Shown: positions 34,308 to 61,950, counted from the first letter of the stretch. The stretch is DNA of 64,000 nt from Escherichia coli (GCF_044324785.1 NZ_CP172127.1); one strand, 5' to 3'. Translations and numbers: made by a program. Notes: a model not told the origin generated them from the sequence alone.

Positions 34308-34322
34308 TTGACGACTCCTGTC

Positions 34323-35891
34323 TTAGCGTGCCGGCTGAGTAGTCGTGGAAGACTGCTCAAAGTGATAGCGACCGGTTTTCAGGCTGCTTGGGCCGAGGCG
34401 TGCAAACTTGAACATTAAGAACAATTCTGCCACCAGGAACAGGGTATACAGGCCGCAAATCAGCACCATTGAGAAGATGAGGTCGCCTGCGGTCAGTGAC
34501 GAGTTCGCCACAGCTGTCGGCAGCACTTCACCGATAGCCCACGGTTGGCGGCCATATTCAGCCACAAACCAGCCCGCTTCTACAGCAATCCACGGCAGCG
34601 GAATACCGTACAGCGCGGCGCGCAGCAGCCATTTTTTCTCGCCAATGCGGTTGCGGATGACACTCCAGAAAGAGAGCGCGATGATTGCCAGCAGCAGGAA
34701 GCCACACGCCACCATGATACGGAACGCGAAGTACAGCGGCGCTACACGTGGAATGGAGTCTTTGGTTGCCTGTTGAATCTGCGCTTCAGTTGCATCCGCC
34801 ACGTTTGGCGTATAGCGTTTCAGCAGCAGACCGTAACCGAGGTCTTTCTTCATGCTATTGAACTGATCACGAACCGCCTGGTCGGTAGAACCAGAACGCA
34901 GTTGCTCGAGCAGAGAGTACGCCTTCATCCCGTTACGAATGCGTTCTTCATGCTGCACCATCAGTTCTTTCAGGCCGATAACTGGAGTATCCACGGAACG
35001 CGTTGCAATGATGCCCAGCGCGTAAGGGATCTGGATCGCAAATTTGTTCGTCTCCTCTTCCTGATCAGGAATGCCGAACAGAGTAAAGGCAGCAGGCGCA
35101 GGTTGCGTTTCCCACTCGGCTTCAATAGCAGCCAGTTTGGTTTTCTGCACGTCGCCCATTTCGTAGCCGGATTCATCACCCAGAACAATAACAGACAGAA
35201 CGGCAGCCATACCGAAGCTGGCAGCGATAGCAAAGGAGCGTTTAGCGAAGGCGAAGTCACGACCTTTCAGCATATACCATGCGCTGATACCGAGGATGAA
35301 CATCGCGCCAGTCACATAACCAGACGCTACAGTGTGAACGAATTTCACCTGAGCAACCGGGTTAAGCACCAGCTCGGAGAAGCTCACCATCTCCATACGC
35401 ATAGTTTCAAAGTTGAAATCGGATGCGATTGGGTTTTGCATCCAGCCGTTCGCAACCAGAATCCACAGTGCGGACAGGTTTGAACCGAGCGCCACCAGCC
35501 AGGTGACACACATATGCTGAACTTTACCCAGACGATCCCAACCGAAGAAGAACAGACCTACAAAGGTGGATTCGAGGAAGAAGGCCATCAGACCTTCGAT
35601 TGCCAGCGGCGCACCGAAGATATCCCCTACATAGTGGGAATAGTAAGACCAGTTAGTCCCGAACTGGAACTCCATGGTCAGACCGGTAGCCACACCCAGA
35701 GCGAAGTTGATACCAAACAACTTGCCCCAGAACTTGGTCATATCTTTATAAATCTGTTTGCCGGAAAGGACGTAGACCGTTTCCATAATGGCCAGCAGGA
35801 ACGCCATACCGAGCGTCAGTGGCACAAAAAGGAAGTGGTACATCGCGGTCAAGGCAAACTGTAAGCGCGACAGTTCGACTATATCTAACAT
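34323..35891 (-). CDS. cydA: Cytochrome bd-I ubiquinol oxidase subunit I
   Basis: N-terminus [20 protein letters not shown]; start placed at second Met of the ORF-track frame. Confidence 0.9.
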
Positions 35892-36229
35892 CATGACTCC
35901 TTGCTCATCGCATGAAGACTCCGAGAGTGAACCCCGTTAGAAAGGGTCACACGCATGCCCCAATACAAAATTATTTGCTCGCCTCTATCGTTGCCATTTC
36001 ATCAAAAGAGGAAAAGACAATGATAAAAAAGTTACAAATATGTTAATGAATAAACCAAATTGATCCCGTAATTATATTACGCCGCAAAATCCTTACAATA
36101 AACAGGTTTTTATTGAGCAAATTTGCATTTTTCGACAGTGATCAATTTATAGCGAAATTGTCACGACATCACCAATTTGATCTACGACAATTTATCGTGT
36201 TTTGCAGATTTTTTTCAAGAATTAAAAAT

Positions 36230-36243
36230 TGATTTATATCAAA
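36230..36243. promoter_or_regulatory. FNR-type site (TTGAT-N4-ATCAA) in the cydAB upstream region
   Basis: Perfect ttgatttatatcaa palindrome about 340 bp upstream of cydA in a long AT-rich leader; cydAB is FNR/ArcA-regulated. Confidence 0.4.
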
Positions 36244-36696
36244 ATCAGCCAAATATGTTAATTATGTATAAACCATAGATCATTGGTAATTTTATTGTTA
36301 ATTTATTGTGAAATATTTATGCAACACAATTATTACAATGAAAAAGTATAGATAAAAAACCAGTGTTTTATTTAACAGAACCGCCCTATCCACTTTTTAT
36401 AATACCAATTGATTAGAGTAGCCAATTTGTTGCTATTTTACATAACATATTTTTATCAAAGTTAATTGATTGTTGCCTTTATGAGCACCGACCGTAAGCC
36501 CGTTATGTTATTGTTTCATTAGTAATAATCACTTAAATGTATCGATAAAACAGGTATGACTTAGCGGGAGTGATTGTTTCTGAGTGAACAGAGGACACTT
36601 TCGCCTGATAAATGAAAAATGAGCGATTTTTGCAAGTTAGTTTTTCTATAGCCGAGTACGCTCAGCGCCTCGCTTGATTACAATGAGGTTGCTGCT

Positions 36697-37641
36697 ATGA
36701 GTCCTGATAATATCGGTTCGGCTGTCAATCGCTTCTTAGGTTGGCCATCTAATGATCCTCTAAAAACAGATAACGAATCAATGACATCACCCGTGACTGT
36801 GCAGGTAATAAAGATGATTGCCGCCATCCTTGACCCACATCGGATAGTCGTTGGAATCGATACACTTTATACAACGCAGCGCGAAACATTTACCTCAGAG
36901 AGTCAACAGCTCATTGAATCAGCATTGCAAACACTTCATGTGATGAATTTAAATAACCTGGAAACAAATCTCGATGAGGAAGGTCACTATCTGGCTTTTG
37001 GATATAACGTTGACACTCCTGACAGAATAACCGTTTCTGCTTATAATGAAAAAAAGCCTGGCTGCTATGGTCAATGTCTTTTAATACAGGATGACGAAAC
37101 AGACTTATTTAACCTGATAAAAGTTAAAATTTTTGAAACCAGGCATAATTATGTCGCTCAATTGATGAGCGATCCGGAATTTATGTTCAAATTTAGTTAT
37201 AGCGCTCAACAAAATAGATTAGAACCTCATCTTCTGGTTCCCACTTATTTCCCTCTAAAAACAAACGAACCGGTTACGCAAGAGGATGTACTGTTACTTT
37301 ATCGTTTCTTTAAAATGGATGGTGATTTTAATATATTAACATCAGATGAATACATGAGTATCATGACACCTCTGATGAAGTGTGAGCGCAGCATCCACGA
37401 CCACAACAGGTATGTGACGGGCAAAGATACCCTTCTTCTGGACTATCCTCCTTCTGGTAACCAGATATATTTCCATATTTTTCCTGACGAATCAGCAACA
37501 CTAGTCCTTTATTTTTCAAACAATGACATTGAATGTTTCGTCTTTGAAAGAGATATTCCGAGCCAGTATCGCTTTTTCAAAATGTTTACCAATCTGGCAC
37601 TGGTTATTGATCAGTTAACCGATGCCAATCAAATACTTTAA
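36697..37641 (+). CDS. Hypothetical protein (314 aa), no recognisable family, low G+C
   Basis: Long ORF with GAGG RBS 8 nt upstream of ATG; AT-rich codon usage unlike flanking core genes; N-terminus rich in Ser/Thr/Asn/Pro; absent from this position in K-12 as recalled. Confidence 0.5.
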   Translation: MSPDNIGSAVNRFLGWPSNDPLKTDNESMTSPVTVQVIKMIAAILDPHRIVVGIDTLYTTQRETFTSESQQLIESALQTLHVMNLNNLETNLDEEGHYLAFGYNVDTPDRITVSAYNEKKPGCYGQCLLIQDDETDLFNLIKVKIFETRHNYVAQLMSDPEFMFKFSYSAQQNRLEPHLLVPTYFPLKTNEPVTQEDVLLLYRFFKMDGDFNILTSDEYMSIMTPLMKCERSIHDHNRYVTGKDTLLLDYPPSGNQIYFHIFPDESATLVLYFSNNDIECFVFERDIPSQYRFFKMFTNLALVIDQLTDANQIL

Positions 37642-37721
37642 TTTTTATATATTCCCTGTGGCAAATATTGCTAAACAATGCCCGGGGATTAATTTTTATT
37701 ACTCACGGAAAGATTTAAATA

Positions 37722-38144
37722 ATGATCCCATCTCAAATCTCTTTCAACACCCTTCCTGTCAATGCAACATACGCTTCAGAGACAACAGTTGACACACAAA
37801 AATTCTCTGACATCCTCTACTCAGCGGGGTGTTCCCTAAAGGATCTGGCTTATCTGAGCAGATGTCTGGCATCAATACATCCGACTATCGCCAAAAACAT
37901 TTATGAAACAGAAAATCTCAGCGATCAAAAATTACTGCATATTGATTGCCGTAGTACAAATGAAATCAAGATAAATATCTTTTTTGGTCAACAACGAGAA
38001 GGATTAATTGAAATTAATTCTGACACTGTCATTTTTCCGATATTGTCTTCATTAATTGACTCCGCCATTTCTAAATTTCAACACCAAATCCCCGTTAACG
38101 GTTCAGTAAATCCTGACCTATTGTATGAGGATTATACTGATTAA
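37722..38144 (+). CDS. Hypothetical protein (140 aa), acidic, low G+C
   Basis: ORF 80 bp downstream of and co-oriented with the 314 aa ORF; similar AT-rich composition; acidic C-terminus (LLYEDYTD). Confidence 0.4.
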   Translation: MIPSQISFNTLPVNATYASETTVDTQKFSDILYSAGCSLKDLAYLSRCLASIHPTIAKNIYETENLSDQKLLHIDCRSTNEIKINIFFGQQREGLIEINSDTVIFPILSSLIDSAISKFQHQIPVNGSVNPDLLYEDYTD

Positions 38145-38691
38145 ATCCCTCCTGTCGCGAAAAATGGCCTGCGTTATTGCCAGACGTAATAAAACTTTTG
38201 ATTAACGTTACTCGTACTGGTAGCACCTTCATGTACTTTTCTTTTTTACGAAAAATCAAAAGAGCTAACAAAGGTCATAATTCGCATGAATCATTAATTA
38301 TTTGTTATTTTCAACATTATTTTTACATTAAGCAGAGATGAATTGCAGTGAAATTCGACTTAACTTTTATGAAATGCATTTACTCATGGCTAAAGCCACG
38401 TCACAAAAATGCAAATTAGAAGTTGATCACAATTATCTCAATACATCAAATCAAGTTAATTTTAAAAATTTAACATTCATGACATTAGTTGACATAACAC
38501 ACTGAATTAAAATGATAATTTGAAAACACACTTTAAACAATCATTTCCCGAAAGACATTTTGAAAATAGATCAATTGCAACATTACGGTCAGATAAAGAC
38601 ACTCCTGTGATATTAAACCTGTGCCGTTATGAGCGGCCATAAATACGACGTGTGTAACTTATTTTACTCTCTGTCTTACAAAGGATTACCC

Positions 38692-39141
38692 ATGAAGAAA
38701 GCAACACTTGTGATTGGCGTTATTGGCGCGGACTGCCATGCAGTAGGCAATAAAGTTCTGGACCGAGTTTTTAGCAACCATGACTTCAGAGTTATTAATC
38801 TGGGCGTAATGGTCAGCCAGGACGAATATATTGATGCTGCCATTGAAACTGGTGCTGACGCGATTGTCGTCTCCTCTATCTATGGGCATGGCGATATCGA
38901 TTGTCTGGGCATGCGCGAACGCTGCATCGAGCGTGGGCTGGGTAACATCCTGCTCTATGTGGGCGGTAACCTGGTGGTCGGAAAACATGACTTCGCTGAC
39001 GTGGAAACCAAGTTCAAAGAGATGGGATTTGATCGCGTCTTTTCCCCAAGTCATGACTTAGAAGATGTTTGTCAGCTGATGGCCCACGATATCAACCAAC
39101 GTCATGACGTTGATACTCGCATTCTTGAAGAGGCAATCTGA
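38692..39141 (+). CDS. glmS: Glutamate mutase sigma (B12-binding) subunit
   Basis: [18 protein letters not shown] cobalamin-binding motif (DxHxxG); start placed at MKKATLV with AAGGA RBS; stop overlaps the next start. Confidence 0.85.
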
Positions 39142-40529
39142 TGCAAATCGTCTCTGTCGATATTGGATCGACGTGGACCAAAGCAGCCCTCTTCACCCGG
39201 GAGGGGGACGCGTTAACGTTGGTTAACCACGTTCTGACCCCAACCACCACCCATCATCTGGCGAAGGGGTTTTTCTCCAGCCTGGACCAGGTGTTAAACG
39301 TAGATAATGCCCTCCCCCTGTTAAACAGTGGTGAGGTTGCATTGAAGTATTCCTCCTCTGCCAAAGGTGGGCTGGCGGTTGCCGCAATGGGATTGGTGCC
39401 TTCTATCACCCTGGAAACCGCGAAAGTAACCGCTCACTCTGCGGGGGCTAAAATTGCGCAATATTACGCCTACAAGCTGAACCGCCGTGATATCCAGGCA
39501 CTGGAAGAAACGCAGCCCGATATTCTCTTGTTCACCGGCGGCACCGACGGCGGAGAAGAAAGCTACGGCCTGAATAACGCCCGTGTGCTGGCAGAATCCA
39601 AACTCGACTGCGCCATTATTTATGCCGGAAACCGGGATATTCAGGACGAGGTGCAGGAGATCCTAGGGCATAAAGACCTGACCATCGTCGACAATGTTCT
39701 GCCCGATCTTGACCATCCGAACCCTTTAGCTGCACGCCAGGCTATCTGCGACATATTCCTTAAACGCATCGTTAAAGGGAAAGGGCTGGATGTCGTTGTT
39801 GATAAAACAGGCGAAGAACCAATGCCGACACCGTGGACAGTCTTTGAACTGGTTAAGGCAATCAGTAATGTCGATCACAGCTGGAAAGAGTTCATGCTGA
39901 TCGACATGGGTGGCGCAACCACCGATGTCTATTCCGCCTGTGCCAACACGCTCTCGCCCGACACCGTTTTACACGGCGTACCGGAACCCTTCGTGAAACG
40001 GACGGTGGAAGGCGATCTGGGAATGCGCGTCTCGGCAATGGTGGTTGGTGAAAGTGCGAAAGAGTTAGTCAATGTGAATTTTGCTCAGCAACCCGCACAG
40101 CTGGACGCTTTTTATCATTACCTCCGTCATCTAGTCGCTCATCCCGACTACTTACCCGCGAATGCAGAAGAAAAATATTTCGATACCGTCCTGGCCGGAC
40201 TGTGTGTGGGTTATGCCACCGAAAGACATGCGGGCACCAAAAAAGAGGTCTGCACCTGCGTCGGCAATGTCGATTTACAGATGGGACGTGACCTGACAAC
40301 CGTGCGTAAAGTCGTCGGATCCGGCGGATGGCTCTCGCGTGCCAGTCAGTTCGATATGCATCACTGGTTGAAATACCGCGAGTTAAACGACGACGGTAAA
40401 CGCATTCTCTTACCGACCGAATTTGAATATTACCGCGATTCCCGGGGGCTATTACCACTGCTGGCAAACGTCGCCAGAGTCGATCCACTGGCCGCCGCGC
40501 GCACCAGTATTCAATGCTTAACCCTATAA
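39141..40529 (+). CDS. glmL: Glutamate mutase accessory/reactivating protein (MutL/GlmL-like)
   Basis: 462 aa starting [18 protein letters not shown] (ASKHA/actin-like ATPase fold); sits between the S and E subunit genes as in clostridial glutamate mutase operons. Confidence 0.75.
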   Translation: MQIVSVDIGSTWTKAALFTREGDALTLVNHVLTPTTTHHLAKGFFSSLDQVLNVDNALPLLNSGEVALKYSSSAKGGLAVAAMGLVPSITLETAKVTAHSAGAKIAQYYAYKLNRRDIQALEETQPDILLFTGGTDGGEESYGLNNARVLAESKLDCAIIYAGNRDIQDEVQEILGHKDLTIVDNVLPDLDHPNPLAARQAICDIFLKRIVKGKGLDVVVDKTGEEPMPTPWTVFELVKAISNVDHSWKEFMLIDMGGATTDVYSACANTLSPDTVLHGVPEPFVKRTVEGDLGMRVSAMVVGESAKELVNVNFAQQPAQLDAFYHYLRHLVAHPDYLPANAEEKYFDTVLAGLCVGYATERHAGTKKEVCTCVGNVDLQMGRDLTTVRKVVGSGGWLSRASQFDMHHWLKYRELNDDGKRILLPTEFEYYRDSRGLLPLLANVARVDPLAAARTSIQCLTL

Positions 40530-40547
40530 CAATTAAGGCTGCAATCA

Positions 40548-41993
40548 ATGGAACTTCGAAATAAGAAATTAACCCATGACGAATTCATGACCGAGCGGCA
40601 ACAGGTACTGAAAACCTGGGAAACCGGCAAGGATGTTGAAAACTTTGAAGATGGCGTTAAATACCAACAAACCATTCCTGAGCATAAACGCTTCTCTCTT
40701 GCGCTGTTGAAAGCAGACAAGGAAGGTAAAACCCTTAGCCAACCGCGCGCAGGTGTGGCGCTGATGGACGAACACATCGAACTACTGAAAACACTACAAG
40801 AAGAGTGCGATCTGCTGCCGAGCACCATCGATGCATATACCCGTCTGAATCGGTACGAAGAAGCGGCTGTAGGGATTAAAAAATCCATCGAAGCCGGAAC
40901 CTCTAAACTGAACGGTTTACCGGTAGTTAACCACGGCGTCGCAGCTTGCCGTCGCCTCACCGAAACTTTGCAAAAACCGCTACAGATCCGCCACGGCACG
41001 CCAGATGCGCGTCTGCTGGCTGAAATCTCGATGGCCAGCGGCTTTACCAGTTATGAAGGCGGCGGCATTTCCTACAATATTCCGTATGCCAAGCGCGTAA
41101 CGCTGGAAAAATCGATCCGCGACTGGCAGTACTGCGACCGTTTAATGGGGATGTATGAAGAACACGGGATCCGCATCAACCGCGAACCGTTTGGCCCACT
41201 AACGGGTACGCTGATCCCGCCGTTTATCTCGCACTCTATCGCGATAATCGAAGGATTACTGGCGCTGGAACAGGGTGTGAAATCTATCACCGTTGGTTAT
41301 GGACAGGTCGGCAGCCTGACGCAGGATGTTGCGGCGATCCAGTCTCTGCGTGAACTTGCACATGAATACTTTCAGAGCTATGGCTATACCGACTATGAAT
41401 TAAGTACCGTGTTTCACCAGTGGATGGGCGGCTTTCCGGAAGACGAATCGAAAGCGTTCGCTATTATCTCCTGGGGCGCAGCCGTCGCGGGGATGTCTGG
41501 TGCCACCAAAGTCATCACCAAAAGTCCGCACGAAGCCTGGGGTATCCCGACTGCCGCTGCCAACATTCAGGGGCTGAAAGCCTCCCGCCAGATGCTCAAC
41601 ATGGTCAATGAGCAGAAATTCCCGCCGTGCCCTGCGGTTGAACTGGAAATTGAACTGATTAAGAGCGAGGTTCGCGCGGTACTGAATAAAGTGTTCGAAC
41701 TGGGTAATGGTGATATTGCGCGCGGTACGGTGCTGGCATTTGAAGCGGGCGTACTGGATGTGCCGTTTGCGCCAGCCGCCTGCAACGCGGGCAAAATTCT
41801 TCCGGTCCGTGACAACACCGGCGCAATACGCGTACTGGAAGCCGGAGCCGTTCCATTGCCAAAAGATATTCTCGACCTCCACCACGATTACGTTGCGGAA
41901 CGCGCACGCTTTGAAGGACGCCAACCGACATTCCAGATGGTTGTAGATGACATCAATGCTGTATCCCACAGTAAATTAATAGGAAGACCATAA
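40548..41993 (+). CDS. glmE: Glutamate mutase epsilon (catalytic) subunit
   Basis: 481 aa with extensive similarity to remembered clostridial GlmE/MutE (e.g. QPRAGVALMDEHIELL, NREPFGPLTGTL, FQMVVDDI). Confidence 0.85.
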   Translation: MELRNKKLTHDEFMTERQQVLKTWETGKDVENFEDGVKYQQTIPEHKRFSLALLKADKEGKTLSQPRAGVALMDEHIELLKTLQEECDLLPSTIDAYTRLNRYEEAAVGIKKSIEAGTSKLNGLPVVNHGVAACRRLTETLQKPLQIRHGTPDARLLAEISMASGFTSYEGGGISYNIPYAKRVTLEKSIRDWQYCDRLMGMYEEHGIRINREPFGPLTGTLIPPFISHSIAIIEGLLALEQGVKSITVGYGQVGSLTQDVAAIQSLRELAHEYFQSYGYTDYELSTVFHQWMGGFPEDESKAFAIISWGAAVAGMSGATKVITKSPHEAWGIPTAAANIQGLKASRQMLNMVNEQKFPPCPAVELEIELIKSEVRAVLNKVFELGNGDIARGTVLAFEAGVLDVPFAPAACNAGKILPVRDNTGAIRVLEAGAVPLPKDILDLHHDYVAERARFEGRQPTFQMVVDDINAVSHSKLIGRP

Positions 41994-43234
41994 TGAAAAT
42001 AAAACAGGCTCTGTTCACCGCTGGCTACTCCTCATTCTATTTCGATGACCAGCAGGCGATAAAAAACGGAGCGGGTCATGACGGCTTTTTTTATACCGGG
42101 GAGCCAGTAACACAGGGGTTTAACGCCGTACGTCAGGCCGGGGAGTGCGTATCGGTACAGTTGATTCTGGAAAACGGCGCGGTCGCTGTAGGTGACTGTG
42201 CTGCCGTACAGTATTCCGGGGCAGGTGGTCGCGATCCACTGTTCCTCGCAGAGCACTTTATTCCGTTCCTCAACGACCATATTAAGCCATTACTGGTAGG
42301 CCGCGATGTAGATGCTTTCCTGCCGAATGCCCGTTTCTTCGACAAATTGCGTATTGACGGCAACTTGCTACATACCGCCGTACGCTACGGATTATCACAG
42401 GCGCTGCTTGATGCTACCGCGCTGGCAACCGGCCGTCTGAAAACTGAAGTGGTCTGTGATGAATGGCAGTTGCCACGCGTGGCGGAATCCATTCCATTAT
42501 TTGGTCAGAGCGGGGACGATCGATATATCGCCGTCGATAAGATGATCCTTAAGGGCATCGACGTGCTGCCCCATGCACTGATTAATAACGTCGAAGAGAA
42601 ACTGGGCTTTAAAGGTGAAAAACTGCGCGAATATGTCCGCTGGCTGTCGGATCGTATTCTGAGCAAGCGCACCAGCGCACGCTACCACCCTACCCTGCAC
42701 ATCGATGTATACGGCACTATCGGTCTGATCTTCGATATGGATCCGCTTCGCTGTGCGCAATACATCGCCAGCCTGGAAAAAGAAGCGCAAGGCCTGCCGC
42801 TCTACATTGAAGGGCCGGTCGATGCCGGTAACAAGACCGATCAAATTCGCCTGCTGACCGCGATTACCAAAGAGCTGACGCGCCTCGGTTCCGGCGTGAA
42901 AATTGTGGCCGATGAATGGTGTAACACCTACCAGGATATTGTTGATTTCACTGATGCCGCCAGTTGCCACATGGTGCAAATCAAAACCCCGGATCTGGGC
43001 AGTATTCACAACATCGTCGATGCAGTTCTTTATTGCAACAGCCACAGCATGGAAGCGTACCAGGGCGGCACCTGCAATGAAACTGATGTCAGTGCCCGCA
43101 CCTGTGTCCACGTCGCCCTTGCCGCTCGCCCCATGCGTATGCTGGTAAAGCCAGGGATGGGCTTTGACGAAGGCCTCGATATCGTCTTCAACGAAATGAA
43201 TCGTACTATCGCGCTGTTGCAGGCTAAGGATTAA
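41993..43234 (+). CDS. mal: 3-methylaspartate ammonia-lyase (beta-methylaspartase)
   Basis: 413 aa enolase-superfamily protein matching remembered clostridial MAL (GDCAAVQYSGAGGRDPLF, HMVQIKTPDLG); start overlaps glmE stop. Confidence 0.85.
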   Translation: MKIKQALFTAGYSSFYFDDQQAIKNGAGHDGFFYTGEPVTQGFNAVRQAGECVSVQLILENGAVAVGDCAAVQYSGAGGRDPLFLAEHFIPFLNDHIKPLLVGRDVDAFLPNARFFDKLRIDGNLLHTAVRYGLSQALLDATALATGRLKTEVVCDEWQLPRVAESIPLFGQSGDDRYIAVDKMILKGIDVLPHALINNVEEKLGFKGEKLREYVRWLSDRILSKRTSARYHPTLHIDVYGTIGLIFDMDPLRCAQYIASLEKEAQGLPLYIEGPVDAGNKTDQIRLLTAITKELTRLGSGVKIVADEWCNTYQDIVDFTDAASCHMVQIKTPDLGSIHNIVDAVLYCNSHSMEAYQGGTCNETDVSARTCVHVALAARPMRMLVKPGMGFDEGLDIVFNEMNRTIALLQAKD

Positions 43235-43237
43235 CAA

Positions 43238-44608
43238 ATGGCTCGTTCTTTTAAAGTCTTATCGCCAACGGCAATCCTCGGGTATGGATTCCCGGAAGAG
43301 AGCTTCCGCAAAGCGATGGCAGAATCGCCCGATCTGATCGCCGTTGATGCAGGCTCTTCCGATCCAGGCCCCCACTACCTCGGGGCGGGCAAACCGTTTA
43401 CCGATCGCGCAGGGGTCAAGCGCGATCTGCGCTATATGATCACCGCAGGCGTTCAAAATAATATACCGGTGGTGATCGGAACGGCCGGCGGTTCTGGTGC
43501 CGCTCCACACCTGGAGTGGTGCCGAGAAATAATTCATGAGATTGCCCGGGAAGAGCACCTCTCGTTCTCGATGGCGCTGATCCCAGCAGACGTTGACAAA
43601 GCCATCGTCCACCAGGCGCTGGATAACGGCAAAATCACGGCGCTGGATTTTGTCCCGCCGTTAACCCACGACGCGATTGACGAAAGTACGTATATCGTCG
43701 CGCAAATGGGCATCGAACCCTTCCAGCGGGCGCTGAAAGAAGGCGCGCAAGTGGTGCTGGGCGGGCGCGCTTACGACCCGGCCTGCTTTGCTGCGCTACC
43801 GATCATGCAAGGCTTTGATGAAGGTCTGGCGCTGCATTGCGGGAAAATCCTTGAATGCGCGGCAATCGCCGCAACGCCCGGCTCAGGCTCTGACTGTGCG
43901 ATGGGCATCATTGATGACAACGGCTTTACGCTGAAGACATTTAATCCGAAGCGTAAATTTACCGAAACGTCAGCAGCTGCACACACACTGTATGAGAAAT
44001 CCGATCCCTACTTCCTGCCAGGACCTGGCGGCGTGTTGAACCTGAAAGGCTGCACATTTAAAGCGGTCAATGACGGCGAAGTGTACGTCAGCGGTTCTAA
44101 GCATGAAGAAACGCCGTATGCCCTGAAACTGGAAGGTGCGCGACGGGTGGGCTTCCGCTGTCTGACCATCGCCGGAACGCGCGACCCGATCATGATCGCC
44201 GGGATCGATAAAATCATCGATGAAGTCAAAACCAGCGTTTCGCGTAACCTGTCGCTCGACGATGACAGCATTCGCATCAATTTCCACCTGTACGGCAAAA
44301 ACGGGGTGATGGGCGACCATGAACCGATGCAAACTGCCGGGCATGAGCTGGGGATTGTCCTAGATGTAGTTGCACCGACCCAGGAAATTGCCAACAGCGT
44401 TTGCTCGCTGGTGCGCTCTACTATGCTGCACTACGGCTATGAAAACCGCATCGCTACCGCAGGCAACCTGGCGTTCCCGTTCTCCCCTTCTGATATCCAG
44501 GGCGGGCCAGTATACGAATTTTCCATATATCACCTGATTGAAGCCAACGACGCTCTGCGTTTTGATTTCCATATTGAACAGGTGACGCCAGAAGGAGTTC
44601 AGGCATGA
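43238..44608 (+). CDS. DUF1446-like (AtuA-like) protein of unknown function
   Basis: 456 aa ORF beginning 4 nt after the mal stop; family assignment from memory of the N-terminal region, not verified. Confidence 0.55.
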   Translation: MARSFKVLSPTAILGYGFPEESFRKAMAESPDLIAVDAGSSDPGPHYLGAGKPFTDRAGVKRDLRYMITAGVQNNIPVVIGTAGGSGAAPHLEWCREIIHEIAREEHLSFSMALIPADVDKAIVHQALDNGKITALDFVPPLTHDAIDESTYIVAQMGIEPFQRALKEGAQVVLGGRAYDPACFAALPIMQGFDEGLALHCGKILECAAIAATPGSGSDCAMGIIDDNGFTLKTFNPKRKFTETSAAAHTLYEKSDPYFLPGPGGVLNLKGCTFKAVNDGEVYVSGSKHEETPYALKLEGARRVGFRCLTIAGTRDPIMIAGIDKIIDEVKTSVSRNLSLDDDSIRINFHLYGKNGVMGDHEPMQTAGHELGIVLDVVAPTQEIANSVCSLVRSTMLHYGYENRIATAGNLAFPFSPSDIQGGPVYEFSIYHLIEANDALRFDFHIEQVTPEGVQA

Positions 44609-44922
44609 AACAGTCAATTGTCTCACTGGCGCAAGTCATTCGTTCGAAAAATGCCGGACCTTACGAACTGGTTTTAGATATTTTATTTAAAACCAAAGAA
44701 AACTATGAGCGAGTTAAATCATCAGGGCAATTAACCCCAGAACTGATTGCGCGCTTATATCATGTTGAACCTGACTTTATTCACCGTATTGTCTGGTTTG
44801 ATCCTTCTAACGCAGTAAAAATCGTCATGCCACGAGATATTATCTCCGGGAATGTAGGTGACAATGATGTCTATGGTGCACAGCAACATGCACCTTTATT
44901 AAATATGAGTTTCGATTTGTAA
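44605..44922 (+). CDS. Small protein (105 aa), DUF4387-like
   Basis: Start overlaps the stop of the preceding ORF (ATGA); DUF1446/DUF4387 pairing recalled from other genomes. Confidence 0.5.
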   Translation: MKQSIVSLAQVIRSKNAGPYELVLDILFKTKENYERVKSSGQLTPELIARLYHVEPDFIHRIVWFDPSNAVKIVMPRDIISGNVGDNDVYGAQQHAPLLNMSFDL

Positions 44923-45003
44923 AAATCCGAACATTTTTAGCCAACTGACATCCCGTCACTTATTGCAGTTCAACACTTCAGCTATTTGTAAGGTTGTAAT
45001 AGC

Positions 45004-45055
45004 AGGTAGATGCCTGAATCTCTATTCGGGCATCTACTTCTCCTGATTCTGATTT
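45004..45055 (+). terminator. Candidate hairpin/partial terminator between the enzyme block and the transporter gene
   Basis: 10 bp stem GTAGATGCC..GGCATCTAC followed by a T-rich tract (ttctcctgattctgattt). Confidence 0.3.
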
Positions 45056-45082
45056 ATCGCCGTGCACCTGATGGAGGAAAAA

Positions 45083-46363
45083 ATGAAGAAAATAAGTTTA
45101 ACCACGATGATTCTTTTGGCGCTGGTACTTGGAATGATTATCGGCGTAGTGCTCAATAACACTGCTTCACCGGAAACCGCAAAACTCTATGCGCAAGAAA
45201 TATCGATATTCACGACGATTTTCTTACGACTGATAAAAATGATTATCGCTCCGTTAGTGGTCTCTACCCTGGTGGTAGGTATAGCTAAAATGGGCGATGC
45301 CAAAGCCCTTGGTCGTATTTTTTCTAAAACACTCTTTTTATTTATTTGCGCCTCATTGCTGTCAATTGCCTTAGGCTTGATAACAGTAAATTTCTTCATG
45401 CCAGGCACAGGAATTAATTTTGTTGCACACGGAGCCGAAACCACCGGAGTGGTCGCGTCAGAACCCTTTACGCTAAAAGTATTTATTTCGCATGCTTTCC
45501 CCACCAGCATTGTCGATGCCATGGCGCACAATGAAATTTTGCAAATCGTGGTGTTCTCAATTTTCCTCGGCTGTAGCCTGACGGCGATTGGCGAGAAAGG
45601 CAGCGCCATCGTTCACGCCTTAGATTCGCTGGCACATGCCATGTTAAAGCTCACTGGCTACGTCATGCTCTTCGCTCCCCTGACCGTATTCGCTGCTATT
45701 TCAGCATTGATTGCTGAACGAGGACTGGCAGTTATGGTGAGCGCCGGGATCTTTATGGGTGAATTTTATTTCACCATGTTATTACTTTGGGTGCTGCTTA
45801 TCGGTCTGGCCATCGTTTATGTCGGCCCCTGCATCAGACGCCTGACCCGCGCCCTTTCGGAACCCGCCCTGCTGGCATTTACCACATCCAGTTCTGAAGC
45901 GGCTTTTCCGGGAACGCTTGAAAAACTGGAGCAATTTGGCGTTTCCCCCAAAATTGCCAGCTTTGTCTTACCCATTGGCTACTCATTTAATCTCGTTGGA
46001 TCAATGGCCTACTGCTCCTTCGCCACAGTTTTCATCGCCCAGGCCTGCAATATCCATTTATCCATCGGTGAGCAAATCACCATGCTGTTGATCCTGATGT
46101 TGACCTCGAAAGGAATGGCTGGCGTACCACGCGCCTCAATGGTGGTTATCGCCGCCACGCTCAACCAGTTCAATATTCCGGAAGCGGGGCTGATCTTGCT
46201 GATGGGCGTTGATCCGTTCCTTGATATGGGGCGTTCCGCGACAAACGTCATGAGCAACGCAATGGGCGCTGCGATGGTGAGTCGGTGGGAAGGCGAACAT
46301 TTCGGCGAGGGCTGTCGGGGTAAAGCATTAAAACCCAATGAATCGAACGTTGCTCTGCCCTGA
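45083..46363 (+). CDS. Dicarboxylate/amino acid:cation symporter (GltP/DctA family), probable glutamate uptake
   Basis: Hydrophobic ORF, start placed at MKKISL with GGAGG RBS; GltP-like N-terminus. Confidence 0.8.
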   Translation: MKKISLTTMILLALVLGMIIGVVLNNTASPETAKLYAQEISIFTTIFLRLIKMIIAPLVVSTLVVGIAKMGDAKALGRIFSKTLFLFICASLLSIALGLITVNFFMPGTGINFVAHGAETTGVVASEPFTLKVFISHAFPTSIVDAMAHNEILQIVVFSIFLGCSLTAIGEKGSAIVHALDSLAHAMLKLTGYVMLFAPLTVFAAISALIAERGLAVMVSAGIFMGEFYFTMLLLWVLLIGLAIVYVGPCIRRLTRALSEPALLAFTTSSSEAAFPGTLEKLEQFGVSPKIASFVLPIGYSFNLVGSMAYCSFATVFIAQACNIHLSIGEQITMLLILMLTSKGMAGVPRASMVVIAATLNQFNIPEAGLILLMGVDPFLDMGRSATNVMSNAMGAAMVSRWEGEHFGEGCRGKALKPNESNVALP

Positions 46364-46470
46364 GGGGGATCTTAAGCAATCAGAAGCCAATGACTACGCA
46401 TTTTTATAAGCCGGATCATGAAGTTAGACGGCAATTAAGTAACACTAACGTTTAAGGTGAAAAGTGAAAT

Positions 46471-48123
46471 ATGTCCAAACCATTTATCTGGCAAGAACCG
46501 TTTCTACAAAATAAAGACGGTACAGAATATACATTAATTAGCGATCAACATATTACAGTAACGGAATTAGACGGCGAAGAAGTGATAAAAATCGCTCCTG
46601 AAGCATTAACGCTGCTTGCCCGGCAGGCATTTTATGAAGCCTCTTTTTTCTTACGTTCCGCTCATTTGCAACAGGTCGCCAGCATTCTTAACGATCCGCA
46701 GGCCAGTAGTAATGATAAATACGTTGCGTTGCAGTTATTACGTAATGCTGAAGTCTCAGCAAAAGGGGTATTACCCAACTGTCAGGATACCGGCACCGCA
46801 ACTATTGTTGCCAGTAAAGGGCAACAGATATGGACCGGAGGTAACGACGCCGAAGCCTTAAGCAAAGGCATTTACACCACTTTTCAGGAAAATAATCTGC
46901 GCTTTTCACAAAATGCGCCACTGGATATGTATACCGAAGTCAATACGCAAACCAATCTACCGGCGCAGATTGATATCAGCGCCGTCGCTGGTGATGAGTA
47001 CCATTTTCTCTGTATTAATAAAGGGGGCGGCTCTGCCAATAAAGCCGCGCTTTATCAGGAAACAAAATCCCTATTGCAACCAGAAAAACTGACCGCATTT
47101 TTAATCGAAAAAATGAAATCGCTGGGCACCGCTGCCTGCCCGCCTTACCACATCGCCTTTGTCGTCGGAGGGCTTTCAGCCGATCAAACCTTAAAAGTTG
47201 CCAAGCTGGCCTCAACGAAATATTACGACAATTTGCCCACCAGCGGAAACGCGCAGGGACAAGCATTCCGTGATATTGAGTTGGAAAAAGCGTTGCTCAA
47301 CGCCAGTCAGCAATTTGGTATTGGTGCGCAATTTGGGGGTAAATATTTCGCTCATGATATTCGCGTCATTCGTCTGCCGCGTCACGGTGGCTCTTGCCCG
47401 ATAGCTATGGCGCTCTCCTGTTCTGCCGATCGCAATATCAAAGCAAAAATTAACAAGCACGGTATCTGGCTGGAAAAACTCGTACACAATCCGGGGCAAT
47501 ATATTCCAGCCTCACTGCGGGAAGAAAATCACCCGCAACATGTACAGCTGGATCTAAACCGTCCGTTGCGTGACGTGATGCAGGATCTCGCCAGATTACC
47601 GGTAGGCACCCGCGTGTCGTTAAATGGTCCCATCGTAGTGGCGCGCGATATCGCCCACGCCAAAATAAAAGCGCGGCTGGATAGCGGCGAACCGATGCCG
47701 GATTACCTGAAGCATCATATTGTCTATTACGCTGGCCCGGCGAAAACACCTGAGAACATGGCCTGCGGTTCACTGGGTCCAACCACGGGTGGACGAATGG
47801 ACGGTTATGTCGATACCTTCCAGGCGGTTGGCGGCAGTCTGGTGATGTTATCGAAAGGTAACCGCAGCCAGCAGGTCACCGATGCCTGTCACAAACATGG
47901 CGGCTTCAATCTGGGAAGTATTGGCGGTGCAGCAGCGTTACTGGCGCAAGAATATGTCAAAAGTCTGCGTTGCCTGGAATACCCGGAGCTGGGTATGGAA
48001 GCGGTGTGGATGATGGAAGTGGAAAATCTGCCCGCATTCATCCTGGTAGATGATAAAGGCAATAATTTCTTTAGTCAGTTTGAGCAGCAACACCGCTGCG
48101 CCAGTTGCCCTGCGGGACATTAA
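46471..48123 (+). CDS. Class I fumarate hydratase paralog (candidate mesaconase)
   Basis: 550 aa nearly collinear with remembered E. coli FumA ([37 protein letters not shown]); located in the methylaspartate cluster. Confidence 0.85.
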
Positions 48124-48132
48124 GGAAAATGA

Positions 48133-48735
48133 ATGGAAGCGCGAATTTCAACTGAACGGCATGTGCAGCGCCAGCAGAAATTGAAGGAACAGGTCGATAC
48201 GCGCGTCGCGGCGGCGATAGAGAAAAAAGGGATCTTGATTGTTTTCACCGGCAACGGCAAAGGGAAATCCACTGCCGCGTTTGGTACTGTGACGCGCGCG
48301 GTGGGTCATGGCAAAACGGTGGGGGTTGCGCAGTACATCAAGGGGCAATGGGACAACGGCGAATACAACCTTCTCCAGCCGCTGGGGGTTGAGTTTCATA
48401 TTATGGGAACCGGTTTTACCTGGGAGACACAGAACCGGCAAGCGGATATCGACGCGGCGAAAGAGGTCTGGTCGGAAAGCAAACGGATGCTGGCTGACAA
48501 GCGTTACGACTTAGTGGTGCTTGATGAGCTGACCTATATGCTGGCTTACCATTATCTGGACACCGAAGAAGTGATCGCTTCTCTGCAAAACCGCCCGGCA
48601 CAACAAAGTGTCATTGTCACCGGACGCGGTTGCCACAGTCAGATATTAAAAATGGCGGATACGGTCAGCGAAATCCGCCCCGTCAAACATGCTTTTGATA
48701 ACGGCATTCAGGCGCAGCCGGGTATCGACTGGTAA
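48133..48735 (+). CDS. ATP:cob(I)alamin adenosyltransferase (BtuR/CobA family)
   Basis: 200 aa with IVFTGNGKGKSTAAFG P-loop; collinear with remembered BtuR. Confidence 0.85.
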   Translation: MEARISTERHVQRQQKLKEQVDTRVAAAIEKKGILIVFTGNGKGKSTAAFGTVTRAVGHGKTVGVAQYIKGQWDNGEYNLLQPLGVEFHIMGTGFTWETQNRQADIDAAKEVWSESKRMLADKRYDLVVLDELTYMLAYHYLDTEEVIASLQNRPAQQSVIVTGRGCHSQILKMADTVSEIRPVKHAFDNGIQAQPGIDW

Positions 48736-48768
48736 TAACTGCGCCTGGCATCCCGCCAGGCGCAGGTT

Positions 48769-49674
48769 TTACATCTCCTGCGGTACGACCGATTTCGCCA
48801 GCAACCATTCACGAAATTGCTGCAAGTGCGGCGAGTCAGACTTCTCTTCCTGCCACGTCATAATAAAACGATTACCGGTACGAATAGGCACATCACAGGG
48901 AATCACCATATCGCCACTATCCAAATCATGTTGAATAGCGAACCGTGGTAACAGCGCCACGCCGAGATTAGAGCGCACGGCGGCAATCAGCATTGAAAGC
49001 AAATCGAAACGTGGTCCGTTGTTGACCAGCGGACTGCTAACGCCAGATAAGGCAAACCACTCTTCCCAGCCAGTAATACGGGTACTTTGATGCAGAAGTG
49101 GTAACTCTGTAAGCAGTTCTGCCACTGACAGTTTTTGATCGGACATTGCAAGCAAACTGCCGCTGCATACCGGCAAAATCTCTTCTTCAAAGAGATATTC
49201 TACTTCCGCCCAGGGCGCGCAAAAATTTTCGCGCATAATGACAGCATCGTACTCCCGATTAAGAAAATCGCCGTTATTAGCTAAAGAGTGAATATTAACA
49301 ATAATATCGGGATGTAACTTTGTGAATTCATGTAAATTTGGGATTAACCAGTGGGTACTAAACGTAGGATTCACGGCAAGTTCAATAACCTGAACCGTAG
49401 GCTGCCAGGTCATAATGGTATTGGTATCGCGTTCCAGCTTATTTAATGTTTCTTTTACTATCCCCAGGTAATACTTCCCTGCATCATTAAGAAAAATACG
49501 TTTTTTAGAGTGTGAAAATAACGGAGTATGTAAAAATTCCTCCAGCGCACTCACTTGTCTGAATACTGCACTTTGGGTTAACGCTAACTCCTCTGCCGCT
49601 CTGGTATAACTTTCATGACGTGCGACGACCTCAAAAGTCACCAGCAGTTCCGTTTTAGGTATTTTCCCTCGCAT
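48769..49674 (-). CDS. LysR-family transcriptional regulator
   Basis: 301 aa with N-terminal LysR HTH (YTRAAEELALTQSAVFRQVSALE); convergent with the pathway operon. Confidence 0.8.
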   Translation of the reverse strand: MRGKIPKTELLVTFEVVARHESYTRAAEELALTQSAVFRQVSALEEFLHTPLFSHSKKRIFLNDAGKYYLGIVKETLNKLERDTNTIMTWQPTVQVIELAVNPTFSTHWLIPNLHEFTKLHPDIIVNIHSLANNGDFLNREYDAVIMRENFCAPWAEVEYLFEEEILPVCSGSLLAMSDQKLSVAELLTELPLLHQSTRITGWEEWFALSGVSSPLVNNGPRFDLLSMLIAAVRSNLGVALLPRFAIQHDLDSGDMVIPCDVPIRTGNRFIMTWQEEKSDSPHLQQFREWLLAKSVVPQEM

Positions 49675-49705
49675 AATGCCGTCCCTTAAAAATAGTTTAA
49701 ACCAT

Positions 49706-49723
49706 CAAAAATACATTACTTAT
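49706..49723. promoter_or_regulatory. Inverted repeat TTACTT-N6-AAGTAA upstream of the LysR gene
   Basis: Perfect 6 bp arms about 32 bp upstream of the LysR start; fits a T-N11-A LysR-type box. Confidence 0.3.
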
Positions 49724-50239
49724 TACGAAGTAATGGTAACCAAAGCAGCAATAAATAATTTATAAGAATCATGATTGACATTTATAACCCAGTAAGCCTG
49801 GCGTGACAAATATCTTAATCAGATAATAATAATCCGAAAAGCACAGCGCCTTTCGAATTATCCGGAATCACATTAAGTGAAAATTATTAAATTGATATCA
49901 TTTATCATATCTGTGGATATTATGATAAACAATCAACAAAGATTTTATTTTTGATTTATAGCATATCCCTCTAAGAATTTTTGCGATGCTGCAATATCCG
50001 GGGTAAAGACCCGATCCTGGCTGACAAATGGCACGACTTGACGATAAGCGGTGAACATCGCTTTTGTTGATTTACTTAACGCTACGGTCAAACGCTGGGA
50101 AGCCAGTGCATCAGGTAACGATTCGAAATTCGCCGTCGTTCTTATTCGTGGCTTGCGGTCGGTTGCGGCAATCCACAGTGGCTGTGGTCATGCAGTCAAG
50201 CCAGCGGTCAGATTTCGACCGTGGTTAACGTTTAAGGCA

Positions 50240-50339
50240 TAAAAAAGGCCATCATACGATGGCCAACCATGTCGAAACCGACAGCCCTTCGCCATTCCTG
50301 TAGAGGGAAGCGGCGAGGGCTATTTCTTATTACAGATAT
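50240..50339 (-). ncRNA. sdhX: sucD 3'UTR-derived sRNA (SdhX/RybD-like) with intrinsic terminator
   Basis: About 100 nt directly downstream of the sucD stop ending in hairpin ggccatcgtatgatggcc plus U-run on the minus transcript; identity by position and memory only. Confidence 0.45.
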
Positions 50340-51209
50340 TTATTTCAGAACAGTTTTCAGTGCTTCACCGATATCCGCCAGGCTGCGAACGGTTTTCACG
50401 CCTGCGGCTTCCAGAGCAGCGAATTTCTCATCCGCAGTCCCTTTACCACCGGCAATGATGGCACCTGCGTGACCCATACGTTTGCCTTTCGGCGCAGTCA
50501 CACCAGCGATGTAACCCACAACTGGCTTGGTAACGTGCTCTTTGATGTACGCAGCCGCTTCTTCTTCAGCGCTACCGCCGATCTCACCGATCATCACGAT
50601 CGCTTCGGTCTGCGGATCTTTTTCGAACATTTCGAGGATGTCGATAAAGTTAGAGCCAGGGATCGGGTCGCCGCCGATACCAACACAGGTCGACTGACCG
50701 AAACCGTAATCCGTGGTCTGTTTAACCGCTTCATAGGTCAGTGTACCGGAACGGGAAACGATACCCACTTTACCCGGTTTGTGAATGTGACCAGGCTGGA
50801 TACCGATTTTGCATTCACCCGGAGTGATAACGCCTGGGCAGTTCGGGCCGATCATGCGAACGCCCGCTTCATCCAGTTTCACCTTCACGGTCAGCATATC
50901 CAGCGTCGGGATGCCTTCAGTGATGGTGATAATCAGTTTGATGCCTGCATCGATAGCTTCCAGAATGGAGTCTTTGCAGAACGGTGCTGGTACGTAGATA
51001 ACAGAAGCGGTAGCGCCAGTAGCAGCAACAGCTTCACGCACGGTGTTGAACACCGGCAGGCCGAGGTGGGTAGTACCGCCTTTACCTGGGGTTACGCCGC
51101 CAACCATTTTGGTGCCGTATGCAATGGCCTGTTCAGAGTGGAAAGTCCCCTGGCTACCGGTAAAGCCCTGGCAGATAACCTTGGTGTTTTTATCAATTAA
51201 AATGGACAT
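50340..51209 (-). CDS. sucD: Succinyl-CoA synthetase alpha subunit
   Basis: 289 aa starting [18 protein letters not shown]; synteny. Confidence 0.95.
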
Positions 51210-52375
51210 TATTTCCCCTCCACTGCGGCAACAACCTGCTGAGCTGCATCCGTCAGACCTTTTGCTGCAATAATATTCAGGCCGCTGTCAGCCAGTTTCT
51301 TCGCGCCGAGTTCGGCGTTGTTACCTTCCAGACGTACCACGACCGGTACGTTAACACCCACTTCCGCTACCGCGCCGATGATACCGTCAGCGATCAGGTC
51401 GCAACGAACGATACCGCCGAAAATGTTAACCAGAACGGCTTTCACTTTGTCGTCAGAGAGGATGATTTTGAACGCTTCGGTTACACGTTCTTTGGTTGCG
51501 CCGCCGCCAACGTCCAGGAAGTTAGCTGGTTCGCCGCCGTGCAGTTTAACGATGTCCATGGTGCCCATCGCCAGACCTGCGCCGTTAACCATACAACCGA
51601 TGTTACCGTCCAGCGCAACGTAGTTCAGTTCCCACTGTGCAGCCTGTGCTTCACGCGGATCTTCCTGCGACTGGTCACGCATTTCGCGCAGATCAGGCTG
51701 GCGGAACAGTGCGTTGCCGTCAGCGCCCAGTTTGCCGTCGAGGCAAATCAGATCGCCCTGTTTGGTGATGACCAGCGGGTTGATTTCGATCAGCGCCAGG
51801 TCGCGCTCCAGGAAAATGGTCGCCAGGCCCATGAAGATTTTGGTGAACTGCTGAACCAGTTTACCTTCCAGACCCAGTTTGAACGCCAGCTCGCGTCCCT
51901 GATATGGCATCGGGCCAGTCAGCGGATCAAGCGCAACTTTGTGGATCAGGTGCGGAGTTTCTTCCGCCACTTTTTCGATTTCCACGCCGCCTTCGGTGGA
52001 GGCCATAAAGACCACACGACGGGAACTACGGTCTACAACGGCACCGAGATACAGCTCTTTAGCGATATCGGTCGCTGCTTCAACCAGAATCTGGTTAACC
52101 GGTTGGCCATTGGCATCTGTTTGATACGTTACCAGACGCTTGCCCAGCCAGTTTTCTGCAAAAGCACGGATGTCTTCTTTGCTGTTTACAACTTTCACAC
52201 CGCCCGCTTTACCGCGGCCACCAGCGTGAACCTGACATTTCACTACCCACGGACCGGCACCGATTTTTGAAGCGGCTTCTTCTGCTTCGCGCGGAGTAGT
52301 ACAGGCATAACCCACCGGTGCTGGTAAGCCATAGCGGGCAAAAAGTTGTTTTGCCTGATATTCATGTAAGTTCAT
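51209..52375 (-). CDS. sucC: Succinyl-CoA synthetase beta subunit
   Basis: 388 aa starting [18 protein letters not shown]; stop overlaps sucD start. Confidence 0.95.
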
Positions 52376-52468
52376 GTGTTCTGTCCATCCTTCAGTAATC
52401 GTTATCTTTTAAACCGTAGACCGACACCCTATCCACGTCGGTCTACAGTGCAGGTGAAGCTTAAACTA

Positions 52469-53686: not shown

Positions 53687-53700
53687 TGTGTATCCTTTAT

Positions 53701-56502: not shown

Positions 56503-56702
56503 CGTGATCCCTTAAGCATCTTTTTTATGCTTACTTCGCCGTGGATACTACCACGCACAGTGATGTGCGTGCCGGGGTTCACTTGCGAGCTCTTGTCTAC
56601 GTAGTGGCTCGCGAAGGAACCTTTAAAAACTGTCTTAGTGTCAGGGGCAGTTTTTAAAGATTTCCTGAATAGCCGGGGGATTTCCCCGGCATCAACATTT
56701 AA

Positions 56703-57419: not shown

Positions 57420-57434
57420 TTTCCTGTCTCCGCA

Positions 57435-59201: not shown

Positions 59202-59548
59202 CACACACCCCACACCACAACGAATCCATAAATCACGTAAACCACCAGAGCAACGACAATCACCAGTTGCAGCATCAGGCGCAAGGCCAGCGGTTTAACG
59301 TAGTCGGTCAACACCTGCCACATGCCGATCCAGGCATGGATCAAGATAGAAAACAGCGCCAGCAGGGTGAACACTTTGGTGAACGCAGAGGCGAAGAAAC
59401 CGATCCAGACTTCATATGTCAGCTCGCCACTGGTAGCGAAAAAACCGACCATATAAATGATGTAGAGCGTCAGGACGATAGCGGTAGCGCGAACGAGGAT
59501 AAAATCATGTACGCCATTGCGTCCTAATGCGGAGGCGTTGCTTACCAT
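59201..59548 (-). CDS. sdhD: Succinate dehydrogenase membrane anchor subunit
   Basis: 115 aa hydrophobic; synteny. Confidence 0.9.
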
Positions 59549-59931: not shown

Positions 59932-59946
59932 GAATAACGCCCACAT

Positions 59947-61922: not shown

Positions 61923-61950
61923 TGGTTGATTGCTAAGCCGTTTACTTTCC

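Follow-up and report, generated by a model that had tools for sequence, protein, structure and literature searches.

What is encoded between cydA and sucD in Escherichia coli genomes that differ from K-12 at this site, and did these genes reach the site as a recently acquired island? Both questions are raised by a 64,000-nucleotide stretch of E. coli DNA (GCF_044324785.1, NZ_CP172127.1; hereafter, the window), in which cydA (34323-35891, minus strand) and sucD (50340-51209, minus strand) flank a cluster of genes for glutamate mutase and associated enzymes, the glm cluster. By sequence comparison, we consider it highly probable that the window would encode a complete and self-contained methylaspartate pathway in its enterobacterial version, and that the cluster has long been established at the cydA-sucD site, its present form having arisen by deletion.

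We aligned the window with K-12, as the original prediction had proposed. In a blastn comparison of window positions 34000 to 52000 with a K-12-type locus (L002), K-12-type homology stopped at 36267 and restarted at 50237, which in the same alignment is the base after the mngR stop codon of K-12. The variable segment (36268-50236; 13,969 bp) runs from the cydA promoter/upstream region to the suc operon terminator. In the K-12-type genome, this site is occupied by mngB-mngA-mngR. The cluster genes are absent from K-12, and tblastn searches with K-12 MngR, MngA, and MngB and with a tetratricopeptide repeat (TPR) protein yielded nothing significant, leaving no detectable mng remnant in the window. 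The cydA-sucD stretch of the window contains twelve intact genes. Annotation was transferred from the closest complete genome, E. coli WP4-S18-ESBL-07 (99.1% identical and colinear over 18 kb), and protein identities were scored against NCBIfam models with curated equivalog cut-offs.

The genes that had been predicted, namely, glmS, glmL, glmE, a methylaspartate ammonia-lyase gene, a class I fumarase gene, and genes for a symporter, a cobalamin adenosyltransferase, and a LysR-type regulator, were all present and intact in the positions assigned to them, and the cluster is not fragmentary. The small, B12-binding subunit of glutamate (methylaspartate) mutase is encoded by glmS (38692-39141, plus strand; NF002612, 251.9 bits against a cut-off of 110), and its translation contains the DxHxxG cobalamin-binding motif as DCHAVG. 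The gene for the accessory or reactivating protein, glmL (also mutL; 39141-40529, plus strand; NF040745, 510.6 bits, cut-off 475), sits between the genes for the two subunits, followed by glmE for the large catalytic subunit (40548-41993, plus strand; TIGR01503, 865.1 bits, cut-off 390). GlmE matched the clostridial glutamate mutase structures 6H9E and 1CCW over its full length with 637 bits. The next gene, mal (41993-43234, plus strand; TIGR01502, 544.9 bits, cut-off 286), encodes 3-methylaspartate ammonia-lyase (MAL). Over the full length, the protein shares approximately 93% identity with the enzyme of Citrobacter amalonaticus, whose structure has been solved (PDB 1KKO), and the alignment to this structure showed that H194, D238, E273, D307, Q329, and K331 are retained. 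We take these residues to be the catalytic and metal-binding ones, that is, the catalytic base and the Mg2+ ligands. Further downstream lie fumD, encoding a class I (Fe-S) fumarase predicted to act as a mesaconase (46471-48123, plus strand; NF011921, 1273.9 bits, cut-off 1060), and a gene for a CobO/CobA-type ATP:cob(I)alamin adenosyltransferase (cobO; 48133-48735, plus strand; TIGR00708, 246.6 bits, cut-off 167.75). FumD is a single FumA-like polypeptide of 550 residues. Thus, the products of glmS, glmL, glmE, mal, fumD, and cobO all exceeded curated equivalog cut-offs, which bears out the B12-dependent methylaspartate route that had been read from the sequence. The genes from glmS to cmlB (see below) form one packed operon in which neighbors overlap or nearly abut, with the symporter gene, fumD, and cobO on the same strand downstream.

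This cluster is already known, and the window carries a further allele of it. Kronen and Berg described it in 2015 in E. coli O157:H7 and other Enterobacteriaceae (PLoS One 10:e0145098, PMC4682846), as the original prediction had suggested. They named the additional fumarase FumD, a mesaconase/fumarase that favors mesaconate 2- to 3-fold, and reported that 26.5% of E. coli genomes have the cluster, compared with 90.6% for O157:H7 (PMC4682846). We compared the window with O157:H7, another alignment that had been suggested, and found an identical organization: strain ECP17-46 carries the same genes in the same order, and its pathway proteins are 97.6% (FumD) to 100% identical to those of the window. 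Counting as a carrier any genome that contains at least 80% of the window's segment, we found the cluster in 1,116 of 5,426 complete E. coli genomes (20.6%); the best match to the segment in this set was 99.1% identical. Our analysis therefore adds nothing new on the pathway as such, since the cluster, its occurrence, and the activity of FumD were published in 2015 and the citramalate lyase has been named by structures.

The 2015 study left one step open. It gave no function for the DUF1446 gene after mal and described what becomes of (S)-citramalate as "still unclear" (PMC4682846). The original prediction overlooked this gene, cmlA, as well as cmlB, two ORFans, and the gene scraps at 49945-50236. 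In the window, cmlA (43238-44608, plus strand) encodes a protein of the AtuA family (Pfam PF07287, formerly DUF1446), predicted to be the large subunit of citramalate lyase, and cmlB (44605-44922, plus strand) encodes a DUF4387 protein of 105 residues, predicted to be the small subunit. For AtuA itself, a role in the breakdown of terpenes has been proposed, which had first suggested a lyase. The two genes overlap by 4 bp, and the pair directly follows mal. CmlA matched chain A of PDB entries 9ERQ and 9EVF with 973 bits over residues 1 to 456 of 456 (approximately 93% identity), and CmlB matched chain B of the same entries with 193 bits over residues 1 to 104 of 105 (approximately 85% identity). 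The depositors named these chains "Citramalate lyase, subunit A (cmlA)" and "Citramalate lyase, subunit B (cmlB)." The adjacent and overlapping cmlA and cmlB of the window are the allele of a different host species, with a predicted lyase activity. In addition, a 2026 preprint used Raoultella planticola cmlAB, provided by the Berg laboratory, for conversion of citramalate to pyruvate and acetate in vivo (bioRxiv 10.64898/2026.01.16.699985).

Since the AtuA/DUF4387 pair matches CmlAB, the route encoded in the window would lead from glutamate through methylaspartate, mesaconate, and (S)-citramalate to pyruvate, acetate, and NH3. The pathway had been proposed to run from glutamate to mesaconate; this holds as far as it goes, but the predicted route does not stop there, as FumD and CmlAB would take it on to pyruvate and acetate. 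To assess how constant the arrangement is, we recovered 61 loci with CmlA, using one genome per species, 55 of which were long enough for a check of gene order. The order glmS-glmL-glmE-mal-cmlA-cmlB was kept in 52 of these 55 loci and is conserved across Enterobacterales, Aromatoleum/Azoarcus, Telmatospirillum, Bacillota, and Dictyoglomaceae. The conservation of this order in distant phyla supports the assignment of CmlAB. No homologue of citD, citE, or citF was found among all open reading frames (ORFs) of 36268-50236. On this evidence, the gap left in 2015 in the fate of citramalate would now be filled by CmlAB, and genes annotated as "AtuA family" and "DUF4387" in such E. coli genomes are best read as citramalate lyase.

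According to our model, glutamate would enter the cell, presumably, through the symporter encoded downstream of cmlB. The adenosylcobalamin-dependent mutase formed by GlmS and GlmE would convert it to (2S,3S)-3-methylaspartate, with GlmL keeping the mutase active and CobO adenosylating salvaged cobalamin to supply the mutase cofactor. MAL would then take ammonia off methylaspartate to give mesaconate, and FumD would hydrate mesaconate to (S)-citramalate, the predicted substrate of CmlAB. Read in this way, CmlAB closes the route to pyruvate and acetate, and anaerobic use of glutamate by carriers becomes a directly testable prediction. The symporter (45083-46363, plus strand) belongs to the dicarboxylate/amino acid:cation symporter (DAACS) family and presumably serves glutamate uptake. 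It scored 312 bits against the DctA model (cut-off 513) and 302 bits against the GltP model (cut-off 638), falling short of both. A symporter is indeed present, as had been predicted, but its description as glutamate type derives from the genomic context. The LysR-type regulator gene (48769-49674, minus strand) is GcvA-like, with 221.5 bits against the GcvA subfamily, below the cut-off of 288. It is convergent to the cluster and lies at its end, from where it would presumably control expression, and a lysR gene adjoins the cluster in most Enterobacterales loci.

Several points weigh against this reading. Every step of the pathway in the window is assigned by homology; the homologues with direct evidence are O157:H7 FumD (biochemistry), the Citrobacter methylaspartase (structure), CmlAB (structures and in vivo use), and the clostridial glutamate mutase (structure). 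For the citramalate lyase step, the support consists of the molecule names given in the PDB and of the use of the enzyme in one preprint, and no primary publication on CmlAB was found in the literature searched. The symporter substrate is presumed from context, and the target of the LysR-type regulator is likewise conjectural, since its gene is convergent and distal rather than in the usual divergent position. E. coli lacks de novo cobalamin synthesis, so the route would depend on external corrinoids. Moreover, under none of the conditions tried in 2015 did the O157:H7 strain express the cluster or show methylaspartase activity, and it did not grow on glutamate anaerobically (PMC4682846), which indicates that the cluster may be silent under laboratory conditions.

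This silence could also mean that the cluster is a cryptic and decaying relic in E. coli, intact but never expressed and heading to loss. The absence of the cluster from about 79% of complete E. coli genomes would fit such a relic, as would the deletion derivatives and scraps with which the site is littered and the AT-rich flanking DNA, which is of the kind that would usually be silenced by H-NS. We nevertheless consider a relic improbable, because more than 1,000 genomes have the ten pathway genes all intact and the divergence of these genes is not that of unconstrained DNA. Relative to O157:H7, the pathway genes have ratios of nonsynonymous to synonymous substitution rates (dN/dS) of 0.01 to 0.2 at dS values of 0.02 to 0.12, and relative to Escherichia whittamii the dS is 0.4 to 0.9 with dN/dS of at most 0.11. 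These low ratios indicate purifying selection. The dS values relative to O157:H7 are similar to those of cydA (0.033) and sucD (0.078), which indicates that the cluster and the chromosome have diverged together within E. coli. Furthermore, earlier work, according to Kronen and Berg, found methylaspartase activity to be widespread among enterobacteria (PMC4682846). A different function has also been considered, in which the cluster would serve the production or secretion of mesaconate or (S)-citramalate, for instance as a host-directed metabolite, rather than glutamate catabolism. Possible secretion was proposed in 2015, when no citramalate lyase activity was found in E. coli extracts (PMC4682846), and the glutamate-to-mesaconate pathway of the original prediction would agree with it. 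However, cmlAB lies inside the operon, directly after mal (43238-44922), and the pair matches a solved citramalate lyase and travels with glm and mal genes in distant phyla. We therefore regard a secretory role as very improbable, more so than a relic.

We compared the system with others of known function. Apart from allelic differences, the cluster of O157:H7 and other Enterobacteriaceae has the same genes, order, chromosomal site, and right-end scars as the window. The original prediction had called the route typical of clostridia, and the methylaspartate pathway of Clostridium tetanomorphum, Clostridium cochlearium, and Clostridium tetani does share its chemistry, with glutamate mutase S and E subunits, MutL/GlmL, methylaspartase, a mesaconase of the class I fumarase type, and pyruvate and acetate as end products, as predicted here. 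The differences lie in the later steps and in the host. The mesaconase is one FumA-like protein in the window, whereas clostridia have the two-subunit MesAB (PMC4682846), and citramalate would be cleaved by CmlAB of the AtuA/DUF4387 type, whereas a CitDEF complex resembling citrate lyase is the presumed enzyme of clostridia. Unlike the clostridial system, the cluster resides in a facultative anaerobe without the butyrate branch and has an adenosyltransferase of its own. The single-polypeptide FumD, together with the lack of a citDEF-like lyase, marks the enterobacterial rather than the clostridial variant of the pathway. In the methylaspartate cycle of haloarchaea, mesaconate is converted to mesaconyl coenzyme A (CoA) for acetate assimilation, and neither a mesaconase nor a citramalate lyase takes part. 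Since FumD and CmlAB are encoded in the window and a CoA-transferase is not, its genes do not represent the haloarchaeal cycle.

The second question was whether the cluster came to the site as an accessory island that replaced mngR-mngA-mngB, as had been proposed. Several observations would agree with a mobile genomic island of recent import that, through insertion or replacement, took the place of mngRAB: in K-12, precisely this site is occupied by mngRAB, the junction on the right coincides with the first base past the mngR stop codon, carriers of the cluster are a minority among E. coli strains, and the edges of the segment are low in GC content, with AT-rich DNA at 35.5-38.5 kb and 49-50.2 kb flanking the cluster. 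The cluster core, on the other hand, has a GC content of 51 to 56%, like its surroundings and its host. The annotation of the segment contains no integrase, recombinase, tRNA, or insertion sequence (IS) element, and no flanking direct repeats were found around the segment. The full-length E. coli matches in the plasmid set were records of 0.73 to 4.9 Mb, two of them chromosome sized, and included no genuine mobile plasmid. The same site is occupied by the cluster in at least four other genera. Genes cydA and sucD flanked the cluster in members of the Klebsiella oxytoca group, in many Citrobacter, Pseudescherichia vulneris, and sister species within Escherichia, as well as in Salmonella enterica subsp. 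arizonae and diarizonae; the location beside the tricarboxylic acid (TCA) cycle and cytochrome bd genes is thus conserved. Within E. coli, the dS of the cluster matches that of the flanking core genes, genomes with glm, rtcB, and mngBAR in tandem exist, and scraps of hut and rtcB genes in the window point to deletion (both described below). Taken together, these findings make a recent import unlikely, and the notion of an island in this sense is not favored. The occupation of the same site in four other genera, the host-like GC content, and the lack of mobility genes, repeats, and plasmid copies are better explained by an old locus with frequent loss. The simplest reading is that Enterobacteriaceae have long carried the cluster in the cydA-sucD intergenic region and have frequently lost it; repeated homologous replacement through the very conserved flanks is an alternative to it. 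Between genera, identity at four-fold degenerate sites is 27 to 55% for the cluster genes and 49 to 70% for the flanking core genes; the divergence of the cluster is thus no smaller than that of its flanks.

The right end of the segment carries the scars of deletion. Two scraps of a hutH-like ammonia-lyase gene of the HAL/PAL/TAL family lie at 49945-50138 (minus strand), followed by two scraps of the 3' part of rtcB at 50142-50236 (plus strand). Their origin became apparent from an alignment with E. coli CRECJHTL34 (L072), in which the lysR gene is followed by genes for a hutH-like lyase, hutG, hutI, hutD, an NCS1-family permease, and hutU, then by intact rtcB, and then by sucD (L072 26445-36341). 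Window positions 48700-50082 align with L072 25200-26582, extending into the HAL gene by 138 bp from its 3' end (scrap 49945-50082), and the second scrap, 50077-50138, aligns with L072 26925-26986, inside this gene. Similarly, 50142-50198 aligns with L072 36068-36124 in rtcB, and the sequence from 50201 onward aligns with L072 from 36300 onward, that is, with the last 42 bp or so of rtcB; in a tblastn search, the RtcB fragment matched the window with an E value of 2.9e-9. O157:H7 is colinear at 99.25% over the scar-bearing stretch and has the same right-end scars. The presence of these scraps indicates that the window form is a deletion derivative of a glm, hut, and rtcB arrangement, which would have arisen by loss of the hut block and most of rtcB.

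Other E. coli genomes display further states of the site. Among the complete genomes, mngAB was present in 3,884 and the hut block in 144. In EC190329 (L073 6543-27110), cydA is followed by the two ORFans, the whole glm cluster, lysR, intact rtcB, mngB-mngA-mngR, and sucD, and the junction of lysR spacer, rtcB, and mngB is common to about 145 E. coli genomes. Therefore, the glm and mng cargoes are not mutually exclusive, and although K-12 does have mngRAB where the window has glm, the difference is not a simple allelic replacement. In strain S14, which is of the TPR and mng type, we detected degraded, colinear remnants (67 to 83% identity) of glmS, hutU, the hutU-rtcB spacer, and the 3' end of rtcB (L005 4270-4768). 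These lie upstream of the TPR-repeat gene and indicate that the TPR and mng type also descends from the glm, hut, and rtcB arrangement. In VE-T9 (L003 12106-13447), an IS1 element and an adjacent deletion have removed the 3' part of cmlB, the symporter gene, fumD, cobO, lysR, and the 5' part of rtcB, leaving glmSLE-mal-cmlA beside mngBAR. A blastn comparison of the K-12 cydA-mngB spacer with the fuller loci revealed no rtcB, hut, or glm scraps. The cydA-sucD site of E. coli is modular, composed of ORFans, glm cluster, hut block, rtcB, TPR gene, and mngBAR, and the difference between K-12 and O157 is more aptly viewed as the outcome of differential deletion within an old modular locus than as insertion of an island.

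These arrangements also allow a more far-reaching interpretation, which we put forward tentatively and with more doubt than confidence: the cluster of the window may be what trimming has left of an ancestral, larger E. coli locus in which a hut block, leading from histidine to glutamate, was joined directly to the route from glutamate to pyruvate. The larger form is still found intact in about 144 of the 5,426 complete genomes. E. coli is usually treated as unable to degrade histidine. If the interpretation is true, a minority of E. coli strains would have a contiguous, B12-dependent module for fermentation of histidine through glutamate to pyruvate and acetate, and loss from the ancestral hut-linked locus would account for the K-12-like strains. 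The hutH-like protein scored 281 bits against a curated HutH cut-off of 539, and the literature searched contained no report of a link between hut and methylaspartate genes in E. coli. The rarer hut-linked form may deserve study in gut colonization, and it is the sole mildly new thread of this work.

Variation in gene content was also seen outside the E. coli loci. In Klebsiella grimontii (L015), a glutaminase A gene lies between the symporter gene and fumD (13237-14238), and a gene for a PocR-like regulator of the AraC family lies between lysR and sucD (17986-18690); gene spacing in other Klebsiella and Citrobacter loci suggests the same extra genes. The symporter gene and cobO are absent from the versions in E. 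whittamii (L041) and Escherichia sp. E1V33 (L055). In C. amalonaticus S646 (L054 1-4830), mngB-mngA-mngR lies immediately to the left of glmS. In Desulfotomaculum copahuensis (L070 6-3600), hutU and hutI homologues are found just upstream of glm-mal-cmlAB, an independent linkage of hut and methylaspartate genes.

The two ORFans fill the left part of the segment. The first (36697-37641, plus strand) encodes a hypothetical protein of 314 residues with a GC content of about 35 to 39%, and the second (37722-38144, plus strand) one of 140 residues, also with low GC. No match to Pfam, NCBIfam, PADLOC, or PHROGs was obtained for the 314-residue protein, and no family match for the 140-residue protein. 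Only 5 protein clusters among 5.8 billion matched the larger protein, all of them close relatives. Its gene is weakly constrained (dN/dS 0.5 to 0.66), and an AlphaFold2 model built from a 4-sequence alignment was too poor to use, with a predicted local distance difference test (pLDDT) score of 43.5. Both ORFans are restricted to Escherichia loci and absent from other genera among the 61 CmlA loci, and an Escherichia-like contig without the glm cluster carries a 64% homologue of the 314-residue protein between cydA and sucD (L006 9880-12562). Accordingly, the ORFans represent a separate module rather than a part of the pathway. On this contig, the homologue and an unrelated ORF of 258 residues are the sole genes between cydA and sucD.

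As to noncoding elements, the convergent genes cobO and lysR have between them a GC-rich hairpin at 48739-48765 (inverted repeat I6; stem of 11 bp, 9 of them GC pairs), a probable bidirectional terminator. A terminator-like hairpin followed by a T-run, assigned to the suc operon, is found at 50247-50264 (minus strand), within the region shared with K-12 and just outside the variable segment. Scans for promoters and terminators gave counts not above shuffled expectation, and these two hairpins are plausible sites only. No cobalamin riboswitch or other Rfam element was matched at an E value of 1 or less in 35800-50400.

Contigs 98.5 to 98.7% identical to the segment were found in metagenome-assembled genomes labeled Citrobacter sp. 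and Collinsella sp. (L011 and L012); these copies are probably binning contamination. Over the suc-sdh-gltA flank (50300-64000), the best identity among the complete E. coli genomes was 98.5%. Together with the best match of 99.1% for the segment, this indicates that the lineage of the window is not closely represented among complete genomes. On the other side, the first 93 bp of cydA and the 373 bp upstream of it (window 35800-36267, compared with L002 3300-3765) are only about 84% identical between K-12 and the other forms of the locus, which in this comparison were glm-bearing or TPR-type E. coli genomes. Among the E. coli genomes compared, the identity of the CydA protein is 99 to 100%. 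The regulatory region of cyd seems to occur in divergent haplotypes tied to the state of the adjacent variable site.

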